Shown here: piece by piece, positions 5,932-50,502 of the stretch
How positions within the stretch are numbered: position 1 is the first letter of the stretch
Layout: the number at the start of each line of letters is the position of its first letter
Assembly (NCBI GenBank): GCA_038209745.1
Contig: JBBQXJ010000007.1
Location: forward strand, 15,037-79,036
Origin: Verrucomicrobiota bacterium
Lineage (GTDB): Bacteria; Verrucomicrobiota; Verrucomicrobiia; Limisphaerales; CANJSG01
Reading direction: 5' to 3'
DNA: 64,000 nucleotides
Notes under the pieces: generated by a model
Told to the model about the DNA's origin: nothing
Seen by the model: only the letters and a program-made list of their open reading frames with translations
Databases searched by the model: none
Made by a program: the position numbers and the translations under genes

Positions 5932-7545
5932 TCAGGGCTTCTTGAGCTCGGTTTCGACCCCGGCGGGTGCGTCCTTCTTGAGAATCTTCGAAGCGTCCTG
6001 CAGCGCGTAGAGATGAGTCTGGGTGCCGACGTAGAGCACGCCGTTGGCAATGATCGGAGTGGAGTAGATCGGCGAGTCGAACATCGTCTCGCTGATGATC
6101 TTTTTTTCCTTGGTTGCGGCGAACACCACGAGGTCGCCGTCCTCGTCTCCGACATACACCTTGCCGTCAGCCACCATGGTGGATCCCCACATGTGGGCCT
6201 TCATGTCGTGCTCCCAGTAGAGCTTGCCGGTCTCCGCATCGAGACAATGGACGAAGCCGGAGAAGTCCCCGACGAAGAGCAGGCCGGTCGCGGGATCGAT
6301 GGAGACGGTGGAGATGCTGCGGTGGATGCCTCGGAACTCCCAGATGAGGCCGCTCTTGGTCACGTCGCCCGACTTGGTCGGATCGTAGCAGACGAGGCGG
6401 CCGATGCCTTCCCCGTGCTCCGGATCCTGGCCGATGGGGACATAGACGCGGTTCTTGTAGAAGACCGGGGTGGCGTTGATCTCGCTCGGGCCGTCGGCGG
6501 AGGGATACTTGATCGGTTTGCCGTCTTTCGCCCGGTAGTCGGGGGGGTTGCAGTCGGCTTTCCAGAGGACTTTCAGAAACGCGCCTTCGGCCGTCTCCTT
6601 GGGCTCGGCATTGAGAGCGTAGAGCCAGCCATCGCCGCCTCCCGCGTAGAGCTCCATTTTGCCGTTGACCTTGCCGGCCGAGAGGGAAGTCCACTGTCCG
6701 TGGAAGATCCGGGGTCCGATGCCGGCATCGTCTTCACCGACCAGTTTGCCGGTGTTCTTGTCGAGGGCGATGAAGCTCGGCGACATCGGCGAAGGGACGT
6801 TGGAATGGGTCCAGTCCTGTCCGTTGGACGTGCAGACGTAGACGCGGTCGCCGACGATCAGCGGAGAGCTGTTGGAGGCGTTGTGCGGAAACACGCCCAA
6901 CTCGTCCATCATGTCGTAGACCCAGAGGATGTCGGCATCCTTCGGACCGATCTTGGCGGGAGGATTGCCCGTGTCCTTGGTGACGTATTCGGCTTCCGTC
7001 GTGATGCCCTGGTTGCCGTCCTTCTGTCCGTTCAGATCGAGGCAGATGACTTCGCAGCGGCTGGTGACGAGGTAGACCTTGTTGCCCTCGATGCGGGGCG
7101 ACGACAGCAGGCCGAGGTTCTCCCAGTCGTTGACCTTGCCGGATTTCAACTTGGGCACGACGAGCTGCCAGAGGAATTCGCCCGTCTTCTCGTCGAAGCA
7201 CATCAGGACCGAGCGGTCGCCCTGATGCTGGGGATCGCGCGGCGAGTCGTTGTTCGTCCCGATGAGGACGTGGCCGTTGGCCACGACGACGTTGCCGTAG
7301 GCCTGGGACCCGACCTTGGCCACCCACTTCACGTTCTTGGTGGTGGCCATGTCGATGTCCTCGGAGCCGGGCTTGAACTTGCCGGGGACGGCCCCGTCAG
7401 GAAGCCCCTTGGCGGTGGAATACATGTTGCGGTCCGTCGAACCTCCCCACATCGGCCAGTCGTCGGCCTGCAGGCTGACCGCAGCGATGCCGCAGAGCAG
7501 CGAAAGGGTGATCACCGACGCTCCGTGGTTCTTCTTTTTCATCAT
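5932..7545 (-). CDS. Secreted PQQ-like (BamB-like) beta-propeller repeat protein
   Basis: Start MMKKKNHGASVITLSLLCGIAAVSLQA gives a signal peptide. It is followed by DDWPMWGG and repeated G.VY.G..DG.L.A.D..TGK.LW propeller blades. Confidence 0.8.
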   Translation of the reverse strand: MMKKKNHGASVITLSLLCGIAAVSLQADDWPMWGGSTDRNMYSTAKGLPDGAVPGKFKPGSEDIDMATTKNVKWVAKVGSQAYGNVVVANGHVLIGTNNDSPRDPQHQGDRSVLMCFDEKTGEFLWQLVVPKLKSGKVNDWENLGLLSSPRIEGNKVYLVTSRCEVICLDLNGQKDGNQGITTEAEYVTKDTGNPPAKIGPKDADILWVYDMMDELGVFPHNASNSSPLIVGDRVYVCTSNGQDWTHSNVPSPMSPSFIALDKNTGKLVGEDDAGIGPRIFHGQWTSLSAGKVNGKMELYAGGGDGWLYALNAEPKETAEGAFLKVLWKADCNPPDYRAKDGKPIKYPSADGPSEINATPVFYKNRVYVPIGQDPEHGEGIGRLVCYDPTKSGDVTKSGLIWEFRGIHRSISTVSIDPATGLLFVGDFSGFVHCLDAETGKLYWEHDMKAHMWGSTMVADGKVYVGDEDGDLVVFAATKEKKIISETMFDSPIYSTPIIANGVLYVGTQTHLYALQDASKILKKDAPAGVETELKKP

Positions 7546-19824: not shown

Positions 19825-20925
19825 ATGAACGTTCCGTTCCTGAACCTAGCCGCTCAATACGAGGCCCTTAAATCCGACATCCTGCCCGCCGTGGAGAAGG
19901 CCCTCGCCGGTGGCCACTACATCCTCGGGCCCAATGTCGCCGCCTTCGAAAAGGAGCTGGCTGAGTTTACCGGGACCGCGTTCGCCGTCGGCGTGAATTC
20001 CGGATCGGACGCCCTGACGCTGTCGCTGCGGGCGCTCGACGTCGGCCCCGGCGACGAGGTCATCACTTCTCCTTTCACCTACATCGCCCCGGCCGAGTCG
20101 ATCATCCAGATGGGCGCGCGGCTGGTCTTCGCCGACATCGATCCCAAGACGCTTTGTCTGAATCCGAAGGACGTCGCCGAACACATCAGTCCAGCCACGA
20201 AGGCGATCATTCCCGTCCACCTCTTCGGCCAAGCCGCGCCGCTCGACGAGATCTTCGCCTTCGCCAATCCGGCCCAGATCCACATCGTCGAAGACTGCGC
20301 CCAAGCCATCGGCGCCACCCGCAACGGCCAGTCTGTCGGCTCCTTCGGCGCAACGGGCTGCTTCAGCTTCTATCCGACCAAGAACCTTGGCGCCGACGGC
20401 GACGGCGGCGCGATCGTCACCAACGACGAGGCCCTGGCCAAGAAGCTGAAGATGCTCCGCGTCCACGGCATCGAACGCCGCTACCACCACGACCTCCACG
20501 GCTTCAACTCCCGGCTGGACGAGATCCAGGCGGCCATTCTCCGGGTCAAGCTTCCGCACCTGAACCGCTGGAACGCCCGCCGTGCCGAGATCGCCGCCCG
20601 TTACGTTGAGGGTTTGAAGAACCTGCCCGTTGAAACCCCGACCACCGCCCCGGGCAACGGCCACGTCTTCCATGTCTTCCATCTGCTGAGCGAACGACGC
20701 GACGAACTGCAGAAGCATCTGGCCGATCACGGCGTGCCGACGATCATCTACTACCCCAAGCCGCTGCACCTCCAGCCATGCTACGCCGACCAGGATTGGC
20801 GCGAGGGCCAGTTCCCCGTGGCCGAGGCGATCTCGAAGAAGATCCTTCCCCTGCCGATGTATCCCGAACTGACCGACGCGCAGGTCGATCATGTGATCAA
20901 GACGATCCGCAAATTCCGATTCTGA
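19825..20925 (+). CDS. DegT/DnrJ/EryC1/StrS family sugar aminotransferase (PLP-dependent)
   Basis: Start MNVPFLNLAAQYEALK (ATG 19825). Family-typical YILGPNV..FE.E.A.F and FSFYPTKNLGA (PLP lysine) are present. Confidence 0.9.
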   Translation: MNVPFLNLAAQYEALKSDILPAVEKALAGGHYILGPNVAAFEKELAEFTGTAFAVGVNSGSDALTLSLRALDVGPGDEVITSPFTYIAPAESIIQMGARLVFADIDPKTLCLNPKDVAEHISPATKAIIPVHLFGQAAPLDEIFAFANPAQIHIVEDCAQAIGATRNGQSVGSFGATGCFSFYPTKNLGADGDGGAIVTNDEALAKKLKMLRVHGIERRYHHDLHGFNSRLDEIQAAILRVKLPHLNRWNARRAEIAARYVEGLKNLPVETPTTAPGNGHVFHVFHLLSERRDELQKHLADHGVPTIIYYPKPLHLQPCYADQDWREGQFPVAEAISKKILPLPMYPELTDAQVDHVIKTIRKFRF

Positions 20926-21034
20926 GAACCGGCCGCAAAGAGGCAGGAAAAGCGGAAAAACTGAAAGGCCCCGATGGACGAATCCACCGGGGCTCTTTCG
21001 TTGTGAATCCTGTGCCCCTTTGCGGACCAACCCT

Positions 21035-21361
21035 TCAGTTCACCGCCAGCAGCTCGACCTCGAAGATCAAGGTGGCGTTCGGCGGGATGACACCGGGATA
21101 ACCGCCGGCGCCGTAGCCCATGTTGGGCGGAATGGTCAGTTTGACCTTCTGGCCGACCTTCATCTGGGCCACGCCGACGTCCCAGCCCTGGATGACCTGG
21201 CCGACTCCGAGCACGAACTCGAAGGGCTCCTTGCGGTCCACGGAGCTGTCGAACTTGGTGCCGTCGGTCAGGGTGCCGGTGTAGTGGACAGAGACGGTCT
21301 GGCCCTTGCGGGGCGACGCGCCGGTGCCGGCGACGAGGGTTTCAGAAACGAGTTGGGACAT
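21035..21361 (-). CDS. FKBP-type peptidyl-prolyl cis-trans isomerase
   Basis: 108 aa: [18 protein letters not shown]...[36 protein letters not shown]....[14 protein letters not shown]. Confidence 0.92.
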
Positions 21362-21372
21362 GGGAGAGGGGA

Positions 21373-21675
21373 TCAGCTTTCGATGACGTTGATTTCGACG
21401 GGTTCGACGCTCACGCCGACCTTTTCCAGCCAGGCAATGATGGACTTCATGTCCGAACGCTTGCCTTCGAGTTCAAGGCAGAGAATTCCGATCTGCTCGC
21501 TGACGCTGGCCTGGCGGACGTTGAAGACGACCGGGAACTTGTGCGCCATTTCCCAGATGATCGGGCGGGTCACCAGCTTGGTCGGGTAGCTGAGCCAGAA
21601 ACGGCGGGTTTCCTTCGCGTCCGTCCGGGCGGCTTCCGGGGCGACCTTCTTCTGGGCAGTCTTCTTGGGAGGCAT
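21373..21675 (-). CDS. Stand-alone NIL-domain protein (100 aa) with a basic N-terminal tail
   Basis: Start [10 protein letters not shown] (ATG at 21673-21675). The core [70 protein letters not shown] resembles the NIL/C2 domain of MetN and NIL-ferredoxin proteins. Confidence 0.65.
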
Positions 21676-21689
21676 GAAAGTATTGGAGT

Positions 21690-21965
21690 TTAGCCGCCGG
21701 CGATCGCCGGGATGATGCTGATCTCGTCGCCGTCCTTGACCGGGGTCTGCTGGTTCTCGAGGAAGCGGATGTCCTCTTCGTTCACGTAGACGTTCACGAA
21801 GCGACGGACCTCGCCCTTCTCGTCGAGCAGGCGTTCCTTGATTCCGGGGAATTTGGACTGCAGCTCGGCCATGGCGGTGGCGACGGTGCCGGTGGCGACT
21901 TCGACGAGTTCCTGCTCGTTGGTGAGCTTGCGGAGCGGAGTTGGGATGCGGACTTTTGCGGGCAT
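21690..21965 (-). CDS. CysO/MoaD/ThiS-family sulfur-carrier protein, copy 2 (91 aa, C-terminal GG)
   Basis: MPAKVRIPTPLR...RFVNVYVNEEDIRF...DGDEISIIPAIAGG. Close to the CysO pattern (RFVNIYVN.EDVRF ... ILPAVAGG). Confidence 0.85.
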   Translation of the reverse strand: MPAKVRIPTPLRKLTNEQELVEVATGTVATAMAELQSKFPGIKERLLDEKGEVRRFVNVYVNEEDIRFLENQQTPVKDGDEISIIPAIAGG

Positions 21966-22146
21966 AAAATTGAACTGCGATTAACGGCGGGATCGTCGGC
22001 CAGTTTCCAGTGGGTGGCAACGGTCAATTCCCGGACTTCGAACCGCTATTCTGCGCTGATTTTCGACGACGCTGCCTTCAGAGAGCCTCCGCGCCACGAT
22101 ACCCTGTCTTGGCCCTGTCAAAGTTGATCGACCAAGATTGGCGGTT

Positions 22147-22180
22147 AAAAAAATCACCCTCCGGCAAACGCCGGGATGAT
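22147..22180 (-). terminator. Intrinsic terminator overlapping the 3' end and stop codon of carrier copy 1
   Basis: Minus strand: AUCAUCCCGGC-GUUU-GCCGGAGGGUGAU, a GC core of 5 bp extended by bulged pairs. It is immediately followed by U7 (plus-strand a47-a53). Confidence 0.55.
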
Positions 22181-22429
22181 GCTGACTTCGTCGCCCGGAT
22201 TGAGCGGGGTCTCTTCGTTCAGGAGGAAGCGCACGTCTTCCTCGTTCACGAAGACCAGCACGGAGCCGCGGAGCTGCCCGTGTTCGTCCATCAGCCGCTC
22301 GCGCACGCCGTGGAAGCGGCTGTGGAGCTGGTGCACCGCGCCGGCCACGGTGCCGGGCTGGACCAGAATCGTCTCCGAGCCTTCACAGTAGCGACGGAGC
22401 GTGGGTGGAATACGAATGGCGACGGACAT
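22154..22429 (-). CDS. CysO/MoaD/ThiS-family sulfur-carrier protein, copy 1 (91 aa, C-terminal GG)
   Basis: Start MSVAIRIPPTLRR (ATG at 22427-22429) ... VLVFVNEEDVRF...PGDEVSIIPAFAGG. Lies 20 nt downstream of the ThrC-like gene. Confidence 0.85.
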   Translation of the reverse strand: MSVAIRIPPTLRRYCEGSETILVQPGTVAGAVHQLHSRFHGVRERLMDEHGQLRGSVLVFVNEEDVRFLLNEETPLNPGDEVSIIPAFAGG

Positions 22430-22449
22430 GGTGGATAGCAGTTTTCGGG

Positions 22450-23703
22450 TTAGGCCGCGGCGGCCGCCTTGTCGCGTTCGAGAATCGCCTCGAACTCGCG
22501 GAGGCTGGGCCGGATCTCGCGGGTTTCGCCGACATGGCCGGTCATGGCTTCGATGGTCTTGAGACCGTTGCCGGTGATGCACAGCACGGCGGAGTCGCCG
22601 GCCGCGATCTTACCCGCCGCGATCAGCTTCTTGGCCACGCCCACGGTCACGCCGCCGGCGGTCTCGGCAAAGATGCCTTCGCATTCGGCCAGAATCCGGA
22701 TGCCTTCGCGCACTTCGTCGTCGGTCACGTCGTCGGCGTAACCGCCGGTCTCCTTCATCACCTTGAGCGCGTAGAAGCCGTCGGCCGGCGTGCCGATGGC
22801 CAGCGACTTGGCGATGGTGTTCGGCTTGACCGGCTTGAAGAAGTCGAGCCCGGCACGGTGCGCGGCGCTGATCGGATTGCAGCCCGTGGCCTGGGCGCCG
22901 TGGATGCGGCTTTCGCCGGAAACGAGGCCGAGCTTGTTCAGCTCCTGGTAGGACTTGTGGATCTTGGTCAGGAGCGAGCCGGACGCCATCGGGATGACGG
23001 TGTGCTGCGGCACCTTCCAGCCGAGCTGCTCGACGATCTCGAAGCCCATCGATTTGGAACCCTCGGCGTAATACGGCCGCATGTTCACGTTCACGAAGGC
23101 CCAGCCATACTTGCCGGCGATCTCGGCGCAGAGGCGGTTGACCTCGTCGTAGTGGCCTTTGATGCTGATGACGTTGGCGCCGTAGACGAGCGAATTGACG
23201 ACCTTGCCCAGCTCCAGATCGGAGGGAATGAAGACGTAGGCCTCCATGCCGGCGGCGGCGGCGTTGGCGGCGACGGAGTTGGCGAGGTTGCCGGTGGAGG
23301 CGCAGGCGGCGGTCTTGAAGCCGAGTTCACGGGCGCGGCTAAGGGCGACGCTGACGACGCGGTCCTTGAACGAAAGCGTGGGGTAGTTGACGGCGTCGTT
23401 CTTGATCCAGAGCTCGCGGATGCCGAGACGTTTGGCCAATCGGTCCGCTTTCACCAGAGGCGTGAACCCGACCTCGACCCCCACGGTGGGGTCACCGGCG
23501 ATGGGCAGCAGCTCGCGATAGCGCCACATGGAGTGCGGCCGGGACTGGATGGCGGCGCGGGTCATCGACTTCTTGATGCTCTCGTAGTCGTAGGCGACTT
23601 CGAGGGGACCAAAGTCGAACTCGCAGACGTGGGTGGCGGCGAGCGGGTACTCGCGGCCGCACTCGCGGCACTTCAACGCCTTCATGAATCCTTGCTGTTG
23701 CAT
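22450..23703 (-). CDS. Threonine synthase-fold PLP enzyme (ThrC family, N-terminal zinc ribbon); candidate sulfur-carrier-dependent homocysteine synthase
   Basis: Start MQQQGFMKALKCRECGREY (ATG at 23701-23703). PLP lysine context YPTLSFKDRVVS; also ACASTGN and GNGLK. The upstream part of the track ORF is really the riboswitch leader. Confidence 0.9.
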   Translation of the reverse strand: MQQQGFMKALKCRECGREYPLAATHVCEFDFGPLEVAYDYESIKKSMTRAAIQSRPHSMWRYRELLPIAGDPTVGVEVGFTPLVKADRLAKRLGIRELWIKNDAVNYPTLSFKDRVVSVALSRARELGFKTAACASTGNLANSVAANAAAAGMEAYVFIPSDLELGKVVNSLVYGANVISIKGHYDEVNRLCAEIAGKYGWAFVNVNMRPYYAEGSKSMGFEIVEQLGWKVPQHTVIPMASGSLLTKIHKSYQELNKLGLVSGESRIHGAQATGCNPISAAHRAGLDFFKPVKPNTIAKSLAIGTPADGFYALKVMKETGGYADDVTDDEVREGIRILAECEGIFAETAGGVTVGVAKKLIAAGKIAAGDSAVLCITGNGLKTIEAMTGHVGETREIRPSLREFEAILERDKAAAAA

Positions 23704-23724
23704 CGTCGTTCTTTTTTTCGGGGC

Positions 23725-23760
23725 AAAAAAAGCCCCTTCTCGTGGTGTCGGGAGAAGAGG
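23725..23760 (-). terminator. Riboswitch expression-platform terminator
   Basis: Minus strand: CCUCUUCUC-(10 nt)-GAGAAGGGG, then C and U7. The 5' arm can alternatively pair perfectly with GAGAAGAG (23775-23782), which overlaps the P1 3' strand and acts as the antiterminator. Confidence 0.8.
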
Positions 23761-23779
23761 ATGGACGGGCCGCGCTCTT

Positions 23780-23896
23780 CTCATTTTTCCCCGGTTCGGC
23801 TGCGATCCGGGCTGGATTTGGCACCTGACGCGGAACTCGCGGTTCCACCGGTTGCCGTGACGTCTTCGGGCCAGTCCCTCGGTCACTCTTAATGAG
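23780..23896 (-). promoter_or_regulatory. SAM-I (S-box) riboswitch aptamer
   Basis: Minus strand reads CUCAUUAAGAGUGACCGAGGGACUGGCCCGAAGACGUCACGGCAACC...CAGGUGCCAAAUCCAGCCCGG...CCGGGGAAAAAUGAG. P1 is CUCAUU/AAUGAG, P2 is GUGAC/GUCAC with the GAGGGA...GGCCC core, P3 is GCAACC...GGUGC, and P4 is CCCGG/CCGGG. This matches the SAM-I consensus almost base for base in the conserved cores. Confidence 0.9.
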
Positions 23897-24208
23897 ATCC
23901 ATTGCGTATATATCAACGGATACGGATTTAATGATTTAAGCCGCAAACTACGTCAACGACTTTTATGCGGATCGATGGCCTGTTCCGATCCCGTCCATGG
24001 GCGACCGGCTGTCTCCGCTCTCGATGTGCGTCTCACCGGTCGGCGTCCCGTGCCTTGGCAGTGGTGAAGTCCCTCGGCCACCGACGCCTTCTGCCGGGAC
24101 AACTCTGTCCCAGTCCCGGAAGGTGGCGCCGTTCGCCTCCGCTTTCCCTGTAGATCCACCCTCATCAGAACTTCTTCTGGCGCCGATAGATCTTGGACCG
24201 GAACGCTC

Positions 24209-28481: not shown

Positions 28482-29612
28482 TCACTCCTTCATCTTCTCC
28501 GGATCCAATCCCACGTTCTGGCACCAGGCGCGGTAGGCGAAGGGGGAGATTTCGCTGGGCTTGATCTCGCTGCGGCCGCCCCAGAAAACGTTGGTGTAAC
28601 CAAGCGGGATGCCGGCTTCGACGAGGTGTTTATCGATGGCGGCCTTGTTCGCGAGCACGACGGGCTTCTCCGTGCCGTGGGCCACGCCCATGACGTTGAC
28701 GTTCTTGAACTCGGGGCCGCCCTCGCGCCAGTAGGCGTGGGTCATGCAGAAGTGGCGGGCGACTTCGCGGCCGGCCTCGATCTCGCGACCAGGCGGCACG
28801 GCCCAGTGGAAGAGCGCGTTGAACCGGGTCACGCGTTCGCCGTCGGCCAGCGTCTTCACGTGTTCGAGGAAGGTGCTGAAGCGGCCGATGACCTTCCGGT
28901 TGTTCAGGTCCTCCGCGACTTCACAGAAGGTTTCCAGCGGCATGCCGGCTTCCTCGGCCCGGGCGCGCCAGAGATCAGGAATGAGTTCACCGACCTCGAA
29001 TTCGCGCTTCAAAGCGGTGAGCACGCGCCACTCCAATTCATTCAACTGCACGACGGAGACATCGGTGACTTCGCCGAGCACGTCGGCCCGCGCACCGGGT
29101 TCGAGGCCGCGACGGCGGATGTGGCCGACGCCGAGGGCGAAGAGGCGTTTGGCCGGCATGAGGCGGAAGTGTTTTGCGCCGATCTTCTCGAGCAGGAATT
29201 CGCAGTGCCGCTCCATCGAATAGCCCTGCGGGACTTTCACCGTGGTCCAGAGCTTGTATTGCGAGCCGGGCGTTTCGGCGTCGGTCGAGCGGGTGACGAC
29301 GTGGCCGGAGAACGGATCCTCTTCGAAGAGATAGTTGAACGCGGCGTCTAGCTTCTCCTGCGGCACTTCCCAGGCGACGAGCGAGCCTTTGGCCAAGTTC
29401 GTGGCGAGCAGGGTCTGGCGGACGCGGCGAATGACACCCTTCTCCAACATGGCGCGGATGCGTTCGATTACGGTGTCGAGGGGCACGCCGGACAGGCGGC
29501 TGATTTCGCCGAGCGGATCGCGCTGGAAGCCCTGGATGCGATCCTCGGAGACGGCAAGGATCTGGGAGTTGACCGGGTCGCTGATACTGAAGGGCACTTC
29601 CGTCGTGTTCAT
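28482..29612 (-). CDS. Tandem Lrp/AsnC-like modules, siroheme decarboxylase (AhbA/AhbB, NirDL)-like fusion (tentative)
   Basis: Two repeats, each an HTH segment plus an effector-like domain. Features include ..EKGVIRRVRQTL... and ..NNRKVIGRFSTFL.., VTHAYWR-like MTHAYWREG, and RLFALGVG. Confidence 0.45.
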   Translation of the reverse strand: MNTTEVPFSISDPVNSQILAVSEDRIQGFQRDPLGEISRLSGVPLDTVIERIRAMLEKGVIRRVRQTLLATNLAKGSLVAWEVPQEKLDAAFNYLFEEDPFSGHVVTRSTDAETPGSQYKLWTTVKVPQGYSMERHCEFLLEKIGAKHFRLMPAKRLFALGVGHIRRRGLEPGARADVLGEVTDVSVVQLNELEWRVLTALKREFEVGELIPDLWRARAEEAGMPLETFCEVAEDLNNRKVIGRFSTFLEHVKTLADGERVTRFNALFHWAVPPGREIEAGREVARHFCMTHAYWREGGPEFKNVNVMGVAHGTEKPVVLANKAAIDKHLVEAGIPLGYTNVFWGGRSEIKPSEISPFAYRAWCQNVGLDPEKMKE

Positions 29613-49827: not shown

Positions 49828-50502
49828 CTACGGAAGCCGTCGTCGAAACTCCCCGCAGGCCGCCGCAATGTCCTTCGCGTTCAGGATCGCCGAGACCACG
49901 CAGATCCGTTTCGCACCGGCTTCCAGCACGGAGTCCAGATTCTCCAGCGTGATGCCGCCGATGGCCCACCAGGGAACCGCCACGTTCGCAGCGGCCCAGC
50001 GCACATACTCCAACGTCACCGGCTTCGCGTCCGGCTTTGTGCCGGTGGGAAACACCGGGCCGATGGCGATGTAGTCGGCACCGGCCGCGACGGCGCGCAG
50101 GGCTTGGGCGGAAGCATGGGTGGAGAGGCCGATTTCTGGGAATGGATACCTGATACCTGATACCTGATTCCCGATACCGGATACCGGATGCAGGAGCTGG
50201 TCTGTGTGGGTGAAGCCGGCGTCGAAGAAGTCTTCCTGGCCGAGATGGCAGGCCGGTGCGCCGAGGGCTTGGGCGACATCAAGATGGTCGTTGATGACCA
50301 ACCGGACGCCGGCGGCGGCGGCGATGGGCAGGAGCTTCTCCGCGACGCCGCGCACCCAGTCGGCCGATTCGTGCTTGGCGCGGAGCTGGACCAGGTCGGC
50401 GCCGCCATCGCACAGCTCGCGGCAGACCACTTCCGGAGTGCGTCCGTGGAGATAGGCCGTGTCCACGAATCCGTAGAGGCGGCAGTCGGCGAGAGGTTTC
50501 AT
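49828..50502 (-). CDS. thiE: Thiamine-phosphate synthase
   Basis: LYGFVD..., GGADLVQLRAK, RLVINDHLDVA, HLGQED, GLSTH, YIAIGPVFPTGTK, IGGI. It carries an extra ~14-aa loop encoded by a heptamer repeat. Confidence 0.9.
   Translation of the reverse strand: MKPLADCRLYGFVDTAYLHGRTPEVVCRELCDGGADLVQLRAKHESADWVRGVAEKLLPIAAAAGVRLVINDHLDVAQALGAPACHLGQEDFFDAGFTHTDQLLHPVSGIGNQVSGIRYPFPEIGLSTHASAQALRAVAAGADYIAIGPVFPTGTKPDAKPVTLEYVRWAAANVAVPWWAIGGITLENLDSVLEAGAKRICVVSAILNAKDIAAACGEFRRRLP
50146..50187. repeat. Heptanucleotide tandem repeat, 6 units, inside thiE
   Basis: Plus strand: ATACCTG ATACCTG ATACCTG ATTCCCG ATACCGG ATACCGG, 42 nt. It encodes PVSGIGNQVSGIRY on the minus strand. Confidence 0.9.

Follow-up and report, generated by a model that had tools for sequence, protein, structure and literature searches.

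A probable MetM/MetO-type route to homocysteine in a Verrucomicrobiota bacterium, with a SAM-I riboswitch, two sulfur carriers and a stand-alone NIL protein

Introduction

What reaction is catalyzed by an enzyme that is annotated as threonine synthase when its gene is preceded by a riboswitch for S-adenosylmethionine (SAM) and followed by a gene for a sulfur carrier? This question is raised by a locus on the minus strand of a 64,000-nucleotide (nt) stretch of DNA from a Verrucomicrobiota bacterium (contig JBBQXJ010000007.1 of assembly GCA_038209745.1, positions 15,037-79,036 of the forward strand; the whole stretch is called the window hereafter). The locus encodes a pyridoxal phosphate (PLP) enzyme of the threonine synthase (ThrC) family, two small carriers of the ThiS/MoaD family and a stand-alone NIL protein. 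An earlier interpretation made from the letters alone, the sequence-only reading, had denied that the enzyme is a threonine synthase and proposed instead a SAM-repressed, carrier-dependent homocysteine synthase in a genome of the Planctomycetes-Verrucomicrobia-Chlamydiae (PVC) type. The assignment to this type of genome is borne out by the top protein matches (85-100% identity), which bear the names Pedosphaera, Limisphaerales or Verrucomicrobiota.

Thiocarboxylate-dependent cysteine synthesis is known from the CysO-CysM system of Mycobacterium tuberculosis, and Krishnamoorthy and Begley reportedly described in 2011 an HcyS-MetY thiocarboxylate pathway in Wolinella succinogenes. SAM-I riboswitches control genes for methionine and SAM. 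For Streptomyces albulus, a MetM/MetO/MoeZ/Mec pathway has reportedly been described (Hasebe, Adachi, Maruyama, Hamano 2024, Appl Environ Microbiol 90:e01247-24), the MetM enzyme of which is often misannotated as threonine synthase (GapMind preprint 10.1101/2024.10.14.618325); the Streptomyces MetM/MetO pair had been named correctly in the sequence-only reading. Riboswitch control is not a novelty of the window: a SAM riboswitch is also reported 5' of metM in S. albulus, and homologues are mentioned for cyanobacteria (PMC12172450).

Our analysis suggests that the locus encodes, with good probability, the MetM/MetO route to methionine in a form belonging to Verrucomicrobiota (Limisphaerales/Pedosphaera-like), because a carrier gene adjoins the ThrC-like gene, SAM-I riboswitches precede it, thrB and thrC occur as its neighbours and the active site is systematically substituted. 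Both the pathway and its regulatory arrangement are known (published in 2024); new here are the phylum, the duplicated carrier and an apparently undescribed NIL accessory.

The ThrC-like enzyme and its gene context

The enzyme, a MetM-like protein of 417 amino acids (aa) encoded at 22450-23703 on the minus strand, belongs to the threonine synthase family of PLP enzymes as had been proposed (PALP, E 2.5e-66; TIGR00260, 274.8 bits). For comparison, species-representative genomes were scanned with an alignment of diverse homologues and the best 80 loci (55-81% identity) were taken, giving 81 loci together with the window, the open reading frames (ORFs) of which were clustered for gene-neighbourhood counts. 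The 80 loci come from Verrucomicrobiota, Kiritimatiellae, Planctomycetota, Deltaproteobacteria, Nitrospirota, Nitrospinota, Cyanobacteria, Actinomycetota, Acidobacteriota, Chloroflexota, Aquificota and others. Single loci are cited by number; L081, from a 94%-identical relative, served for comparisons of spacers and of the ratio of nonsynonymous to synonymous substitution rates (dN/dS), which is 0.10 for the MetM-like gene and thus speaks of purifying selection.

In 75 of the 81 loci, the window included, the gene right after the ThrC-like one encodes a ThiS/MoaD-type carrier with terminal Gly-Gly (GG), and the carriers end nearly always in A-[IV]-A-G-G. Some bear 1-8 residues past GG, including carriers of Nitrospira loci with adjoining genes for a JAMM protease and a MoeB/MoeZ-like E1; in both Nitrospira and deltaproteobacterial loci, E1, JAMM and CysK/CysM genes adjoin. 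The window and 25 other loci (26/81) have a SAM-I aptamer directly 5' of the gene for the ThrC-like enzyme. Two Acidobacteriota loci, both with a SAM-I riboswitch, have thrB right after the carrier (L062:6646-7557 and L066:6692-7609; TIGR00191 241 bits versus 168 for the L066 copy). One operon of Thermodesulfovibrio (L052:151-3101) encodes a MetM-like enzyme, a carrier (GG with an RGI tail), a NIL protein and a canonical threonine synthase that is 66% identical to Aquifex ThrC (TIGR00260, 333 bits). The MetM-like enzyme and canonical ThrC therefore coexist in this organism, where, judging by their genes, they would share the O-phosphohomoserine branch point.

To define a residue signature, 78 clade members were aligned with the five solved ThrC from T. 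thermophilus, Aquifex, B. subtilis, M. tuberculosis and Arabidopsis (1UIM, 2ZSJ, 6CGQ and 2D1F are among the structures), using T. thermophilus numbering. The window enzyme is 55-81% identical to 77 carrier-linked homologues and 29-38% identical to the five solved ThrC (34-38% for the bacterial ones); within the carrier-linked clade, identity is 49-99% across phyla, with a median of 60%, and 26-41% to canonical ThrC. In common with ThrC it is a fold type II PLP enzyme, Lys113 being aligned with the catalytic PLP lysine Lys61, and all 78 clade members retain the PLP lysine and the S-T-G-N loop. Otherwise, the clade departs from ThrC throughout: T88 is replaced by L, S155 by N, N157 by R, R160 by Y, A240 by S and R/K242 by A in 78 of 78 members, Q164 by S in 77 of 78, and N188 by S (59 members) or G (19 members). 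In the window enzyme, the changes with respect to canonical ThrC include T88L, S155N, N157R, R160Y, Q164S and N188S, so that the ThrC-invariant positions T88, S155, R160 and N188 are occupied by L, N, Y and S. We take these four residues to contact the phosphate or carboxylate of the substrate in T. thermophilus ThrC, the substrate contacts of which were reportedly described by Omi et al. in 2003. In ThrC, the substrate-derived phosphate assists water addition. As far as the residues can tell, the rebuilt active site of the clade fits a different second half-reaction.

Canonical ThrC also differs from the window enzyme at the N-terminus, where the latter has about 55 additional residues that form a ribbon, besides being under SAM regulation and linked to a carrier gene; the solved ThrC align only from residue ~55 of the enzyme onwards and miss the ribbon. 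An N-terminal zinc ribbon had been predicted. A ribbon is indeed present, but only three of its ligands are cysteines (Cys12, Cys15, Cys27) and the fourth is Asp30, resulting in a Cys3-Asp arrangement, whereas most homologues have Cys in the fourth place. The ribbon residues 12-30 correspond to 23614-23670. Asp is the fourth ligand throughout the 16 PVC members and the 120 close relatives listed, and the homologues from Microcystis and Crocosphaera are without three of the four ribbon ligands.

The SAM-I riboswitch

The near-consensus SAM-I aptamer that had been seen at 23780-23896 was confirmed by a match to RF00162 at 23778-23898 on the minus strand, which covers the full model (1-108) with 75.7 bits (gathering score 44.4, E 5.8e-16). 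It is the single Rfam match in the whole window, and a permissive Rfam rescan of 20900-24200 yielded no further credible RNA. With a covariance model (CM) of our own, the score is 111.5 bits. The expression platform comprises an intrinsic terminator, CCUCUUCUC-N10-GAGAAGGGG-C-U7 (23725-23760, minus strand, -11.9 kcal/mol), and an antiterminator, GAGAAGAG:CUCUUCUC (23752-23782, minus strand, -9.0 kcal/mol as bare helix), where GAGAAGAG joins the final four nucleotides of P1 on its 3' side to AGAG. When the 3' arm of the terminator is omitted, the antiterminator is the minimum free energy fold (-11.6 kcal/mol). Because both structures need CUCUUCUC, they are mutually exclusive, as the sequence-only reading had held, and the P1 3' strand competes with the terminator for pairing in the manner of SAM-I expression platforms. 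RNA folding thus predicts a classical S-box OFF switch: at high SAM, the aptamer would lock P1 and leave CUCUUCUC free for the terminator, stopping transcription before the genes, and at low SAM the P1 3' strand would pair with CUCUUCUC and transcription would read through.

In the relatives, the riboswitch was surveyed with Rfam on 18 loci and then with a CM built from 11 matches. Across 27 aptamers 5' of homologous genes (the 26 directly upstream matches and a weak match of 21.6 bits in L004), pairing holds in 95% of cells and compensatory changes are seen at 16 of 29 pairs, in an alignment fitted to our own CM, a fit that favours the structure; none of 500 shuffles was as good, and slid partners were 40-54% paired. 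Riboswitch-positive loci are found in Verrucomicrobiota, Kiritimatiellae, Planctomycetota, one deltaproteobacterium, Acidobacteriota, Acidimicrobiia and other Actinomycetota, and Dehalococcoidia, while neither Rfam nor the CM detected a SAM-I aptamer in the cyanobacterial or Nitrospira loci among the 81. A terminator hairpin with a U-run, comparable to that of the window, follows 38-47 nt past the aptamer in verrucomicrobial and some other relatives (L001, L002, L003, L013, L015, L044 and L066). In Acidimicrobiia and the actinomycete locus L074, the aptamer is at most 17 nt away from the start codon, a position that implies translational control.

Three further features of the leader deserve mention. 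Just past the terminator U-run (23711-23741), a conserved GCCCC can pair with GGGGC of the 3' arm, with the U-run as loop, and the A-run that follows can pair with the U-run itself; the pattern GGGG(C/T)-U-rich-GCCCC is present in five of six verrucomicrobial relatives, with GCCCA in L003. This pairing may be a structure of read-through transcripts. Upstream, a candidate -35 element TTGACG (23951-23956, minus strand) lies ~50 nt before the aptamer, and five relatives from Verrucomicrobiota share TTGAC(A/G) with the window without exception. No good -10 element was identified, but by its conservation it appears to be a better promoter candidate than the possible extended -10 suggested earlier at about 23907-23915; the latter (TGATATATA) was rejected, as it is not conserved, misses the final T and sits in the loop of a 5' leader hairpin. 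This hairpin, ATCCGTTG/CAATGGAT (23897-23921, minus strand), has weak counterparts (z -0.5 to -1.7) in the corresponding position of L081, L002 and L003, and we have low confidence in it as a real element.

The two carriers

Starting 20 nt past the stop codon of the enzyme, carrier 1 (22154-22429, minus strand; PF02597, E 1.3e-12) is a 91-aa protein of the ThiS/MoaD family ending in AFAGG, and corresponds well to the CysO/MoaD-like protein described in the sequence-only reading. A second carrier, which had not been mentioned there, is encoded after a spacer of 188 nt (carrier 2, 21690-21965, minus strand; 91 aa, ending in AIAGG; PF02597, E 3.5e-18, with the SAMP1 and MoaD_arch models at their cut-offs). 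Carrier 2 is 98% identical to the second carrier of L081 (L081_b), 77-81% to the single carriers of L001, L003, L006 and L082 from other Verrucomicrobiota, and 62-65% to carriers of Nitrospira and Kiritimatiellae. Carrier 1, by comparison, shares 53% identity with carrier 2 and 87% with its L081 counterpart (L081_a), no longer has the conserved RRFVN motif, and is confined to the window and L081 among the 81 loci. Both carriers are under purifying selection, with dN/dS of 0.19 for carrier 1 and 0.06 for carrier 2. By these comparisons, carrier 2 is the conserved MetO orthologue, and carrier 1 is a recent, lineage-specific and faster-evolving duplicate that has kept its function and that separates metM from the carrier with which metM was originally paired. 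Since both carriers end exactly at GG, JAMM trimming should not be needed, and a JAMM protease may be dispensable for them.

The sequence-only reading had described metM and carrier 1 as a discrete bicistron, closed by a hairpin with U7 over the carrier stop codon. Such a hairpin does exist (CCGGC/GCCGG with U7, 22147-22174, minus strand, -14.6 kcal/mol, z -1.37), but as a closing terminator it is weak and not conserved: the 5-bp stem, which coincides with the P-A-F-A-G codons, ends 7 nt before the U-run, 17 of 200 shuffles fold as well, the terminator scan did not call it and L081 has no U-run at this place. It is possible that the hairpin acts as a partial terminator. The corresponding alternative, that carrier 2, the NIL protein and an FKBP-type protein encoded further downstream form an independent and unrelated operon, can draw on this hairpin, on the length of the 188-nt spacer and on the lack of spacer conservation with respect to L081. 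We nevertheless consider it rather doubtful: in every other Verrucomicrobiota locus, the carrier-2 orthologue and NIL come next after metM, with gaps of 5-133 nt in L001, L003, L006 and L082; in the window they follow on the same strand, behind what is a divergent paralogue; and no sigma-70-like promoter was found by a scan of the minus strand of the spacer. Read-through from metM and carrier 1 to carrier 2, NIL and the FKBP gene thus appears to be the likelier arrangement, as judged from the DNA.

Rfam detected no second riboswitch or other RNA in the spacer (E <= 1), which also lacks a fold signal (z +0.2 to +0.4) and resembles neither the 3' end of metM nor L081; a scar of tandem duplication could therefore not be shown. 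In L081, additional ORFs of 77 and 156 aa without Pfam match are called in the spacers around both carriers (L081:5639-5992 and 6269-6803). The counterparts of these spacers in the window measure only 188 nt and 14 nt, and the structure of the operon is variable in this region.

The NIL protein

Only 14 nt past carrier 2, a gene that had also escaped the sequence-only reading encodes a stand-alone NIL protein of 100 aa (21373-21675, minus strand; PF09383, E 9.6e-12, 45.1 bits versus a cut-off of 24), which consists of a basic disordered N-terminal tail and a NIL core, with no ABC ATPase, ferredoxin or other domain. NIL follows the carrier in 27 loci from Verrucomicrobiota, Nitrospirota, Thermodesulfovibrio, Deltaproteobacteria, Chloroflexota, Methylomirabilota and one planctomycete. 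In three independent genomes, carrier and NIL are fused in frame (...AIAGG-SFLKRR...NIL; L012:6282-6797, L013:6281-6796 and L014:3326-3856), and JAMM and E1 genes lie near these fusions. Such fusions imply post-translational cleavage after Gly-Gly, for which the JAMM cleavage of a MoaD-MoaE fusion offers a precedent (cited in PMC11237513). In some Planctomycetota loci, the position of NIL is taken by an acidic protein of ~116 aa without Pfam match (L036:6577-6927; also L017, L044 and L060); next in line are a longer E1 resembling MoeZ and a cysteine desulfurase of class V.

The database names of NIL homologues, i.e. NIL domain-containing protein, ABC-type methionine transport ATPase subunit, L-aspartate semialdehyde sulfurtransferase ferredoxin or just ferredoxin, mark them as uncharacterized. 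Among structures in the PDB, the only relatives by sequence are MetN C2 domains (E 1e-3). An AlphaFold2 model (predicted local distance difference test score 76) has the beta-alpha-beta-beta-alpha-beta, ferredoxin-like fold, and the top seven Foldseek matches are E. coli MetN C2 (E 5e-5 to 8e-4, template modelling score 0.58-0.67, root mean square deviation 1.2-2.8 A), with ACT-like domains ranking after them. Asn52, invariant in 18 homologues, aligns with MetN N295, which hydrogen-bonds the inhibitory L-methionine and the loss of which abolishes binding (PMC6233128). The window protein thus shares the NIL fold and this Asn with MetN C2, but it stands alone, unlike the NIL domains appended to the ABC ATPase in MetN or fused to ferredoxin in MA1822, and is encoded after a sulfur carrier, to which NIL is sometimes fused in the relatives. 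For methanogens and Desulfovibrio, genetic links of NIL proteins to the synthesis of homocysteine are on record, and NIL-ferredoxin proteins are needed for the unrelated DUF39 homocysteine pathway (PMC5764234).

By analogy to MetN, NIL is most plausibly a regulatory subunit that senses methionine or homocysteine; alternatively, it might serve as an adaptor for sulfur relay or carrier docking. A hand count across the loci revealed no association of NIL with the presence of the riboswitch, about one third of loci being riboswitch-positive in both classes. A literature search, the range of which did not extend to Hasebe 2024, found no published link of NIL to sulfur carriers or to MetM/MetO, and NIL is apparently a previously undescribed accessory of the pathway. 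We tentatively put forward, as a possibility that is more speculative than the assignment of the pathway, a three-part module of MetM, MetO and stand-alone NIL, in which NIL senses methionine or homocysteine, MetO-NIL fusions of some lineages are cleaved by JAMM and the duplicated carrier has perhaps become specialized for a second acceptor enzyme. Such a module would demand that JAMM cleaves MetO-NIL after Gly-Gly, much like ubiquitin-fusion precursors, and that NIL gates carrier use or MetM activity, adding feedback at the protein level on top of the riboswitch. If this holds true, a function would be assigned to a domain that recurs in an unrelated homocysteine pathway of methanogens (MA1822).

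Weighing the assignment to the MetM/MetO pathway

Several observations weigh against the assignment. The enzyme surpasses the equivalog cut-off of the NCBIfam thrC model (274.8 versus 167.1 bits for TIGR00260), which explains the annotation as threonine synthase in databases. A Microcystis member of the clade is reported to act in vitro as a threonine synthase and as a deaminase and to form no clear homocysteine with Na2S, in an assay run without carrier thiocarboxylate (PMC12172450); of the four ribbon ligands, this protein retains one. The 64 kb of the window contain no second or canonical thrC, no thrB, no E1 and no JAMM: hidden Markov models built from the E1, JAMM, ThrB, CysK, Rrf2 and DsrE proteins of the relatives found none of them, and Pfam assigned ~45 further window ORFs to unrelated housekeeping genes, in line with the earlier statement that E1 and JAMM are missing. 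The weak hairpin and U7 described above stand between metM/carrier 1 and carrier 2/NIL. Finally, membership in the MetM family, although we hold it to be probable, is deduced from the common architecture and from an indirect bridge through Microcystis, the characterized MetM being outside the comparison.

The bridge consists of an M. aeruginosa (Microcystis) protein beside a metO-like gene that is 51.6% identical to MetM (PMC12172450) and of a homologue from the genus Microcystis (L051), followed by a carrier ending in VAGG, that is 59% identical to the window enzyme. B. subtilis ThrC is 35% identical to the window enzyme, and its identity to MetM is reported as 33%. No Streptomyces locus was among the best 80 loci, an actinobacterial profile search with seven homologues returned only proteins of Acidimicrobiales and other metagenome-assembled Actinomycetota genomes and no Streptomyces MetM, and in a cluster look-up of ten 50%-representatives the sole protein named was from Micromonosporaceae.

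It is improbable that the enzyme uses the carrier to form another sulfur compound, be it cysteine from O-phosphoserine as in CysO-CysM, cystathionine or another thioether. Apart from the CysO-CysM precedent, the cysteine synthase genes in the clusters of Nitrospira and Deltaproteobacteria could be taken to favour such a product; however, these clusters thereby already possess separate CysK/CysM-type enzymes, and the ThrC-like protein is therefore not the cysteine synthase there. The control of methionine and SAM genes by SAM-I riboswitches and the thrB and thrC neighbours, which point to O-phosphohomoserine, also argue against it, as does homocysteine as the reported product of the characterized founder of the family (10.1101/2024.10.14.618325). 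A bona fide threonine synthase, with carriers serving molybdopterin, thiamin, tRNA thiolation or SAMP-like conjugation, is very unlikely despite the TIGR00260 score, a PRK08197 score of 297 bits just under the cut-off of 303, the name threonine synthase on all 120 listed close homologues with a source name and the activity reported for the Microcystis protein, given that SAM and not threonine is the control signal in 26 loci, that a carrier gene adjoins in 75 of the 81 loci, which span more than 10 phyla, that L052 has a canonical thrC beside the MetM-like gene, that all 78 clade members have other residues at four positions invariant in solved ThrC and that GapMind warns of exactly this misannotation (10.1101/2024.10.14.618325). 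With that, the proposal of a SAM-repressed, carrier-dependent homocysteine synthase that is not a threonine synthase remains the best reading, as a prediction from gene context and residue signature.

Predicted pathway and comparison with known systems

In the predicted pathway, the MetM-type enzyme would take O-phosphohomoserine and eliminate phosphate, and would then accept sulfur from the C-terminal Gly-Gly thiocarboxylate of a carrier at C-gamma to yield homocysteine, instead of water at C-beta to yield threonine. An E1 enzyme encoded elsewhere in the genome would adenylate and thiocarboxylate both carriers, and the NIL protein encoded right after carrier 2 would belong to the same module.

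According to the reports on S. albulus MetM/MetO, both systems have a ThrC-homologous PLP enzyme followed by a ThiS/MoaD carrier, an upstream SAM riboswitch, annotation as threonine synthase and O-phosphohomoserine as substrate, which is predicted for the window, and in both the E1 (MoeZ) is encoded elsewhere, as is presumably the case for the window. The differences concern the phylum Verrucomicrobiota, the presence of two carriers, one of them a recent paralogue, the conserved NIL gene after the carrier, the Asp as fourth zinc ligand of the ribbon and the maturation of MetO, for which Mec/JAMM is listed and which should be unnecessary for carriers that end at GG. With CysO-CysM and HcyS-MetY, the locus would share the feeding of a PLP enzyme by the C-terminal thiocarboxylate of a small beta-grasp carrier, and related clusters have E1 and JAMM partners as well. 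In contrast to CysM, which is CysK-like, and MetY, which is a fold-type-I O-acetylhomoserine sulfhydrylase, the PLP enzyme of the window is ThrC-like, and its activated substrate is most likely O-phosphohomoserine.

The assignment would correct a systematic misannotation that affects all 120 listed close homologues with a source name and to which the NCBI thrC model contributes by accepting the protein. The sequence signature ASTGNL, NxNxRPYY and PxASGSL separates MetM-like enzymes from true ThrC. The O-phosphohomoserine/thiocarboxylate route to methionine would now be placed in Verrucomicrobiota and at least 10 other phyla, and its spread bears on predicting which uncultured bacteria of soil and freshwater are methionine prototrophs. 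The conserved and sometimes fused NIL protein is a concrete lead on regulation or sulfur supply of the pathway and on NIL domains in homocysteine synthesis.

Neighbouring genes and minor observations

An FKBP-type peptidyl-prolyl isomerase is encoded 11 nt past the NIL gene (21035-21361, minus strand; PF00254, E 1.8e-39). It follows NIL in L081 as well, but not in L082, and is probably a co-transcribed neighbour and not a conserved part of the module. After it, the terminator scan called a terminator-like hairpin of 11 pairs, 8 of them G-C (20968-20993, minus strand), which is likely the end of the minus-strand unit.

ThiE (thiamine phosphate synthase) is encoded at 49828-50502 on the minus strand, at a distance of 27 kb from the carrier genes and with no ThiS, ThiG or ThiF nearby; thiamin synthesis therefore does not explain the carriers. 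A further ORF on the minus strand (28482-29612) combines an AsnC-type ligand-binding domain with a NirD/L-like helix-turn-helix and resembles siroheme decarboxylase; it is unrelated to the module.

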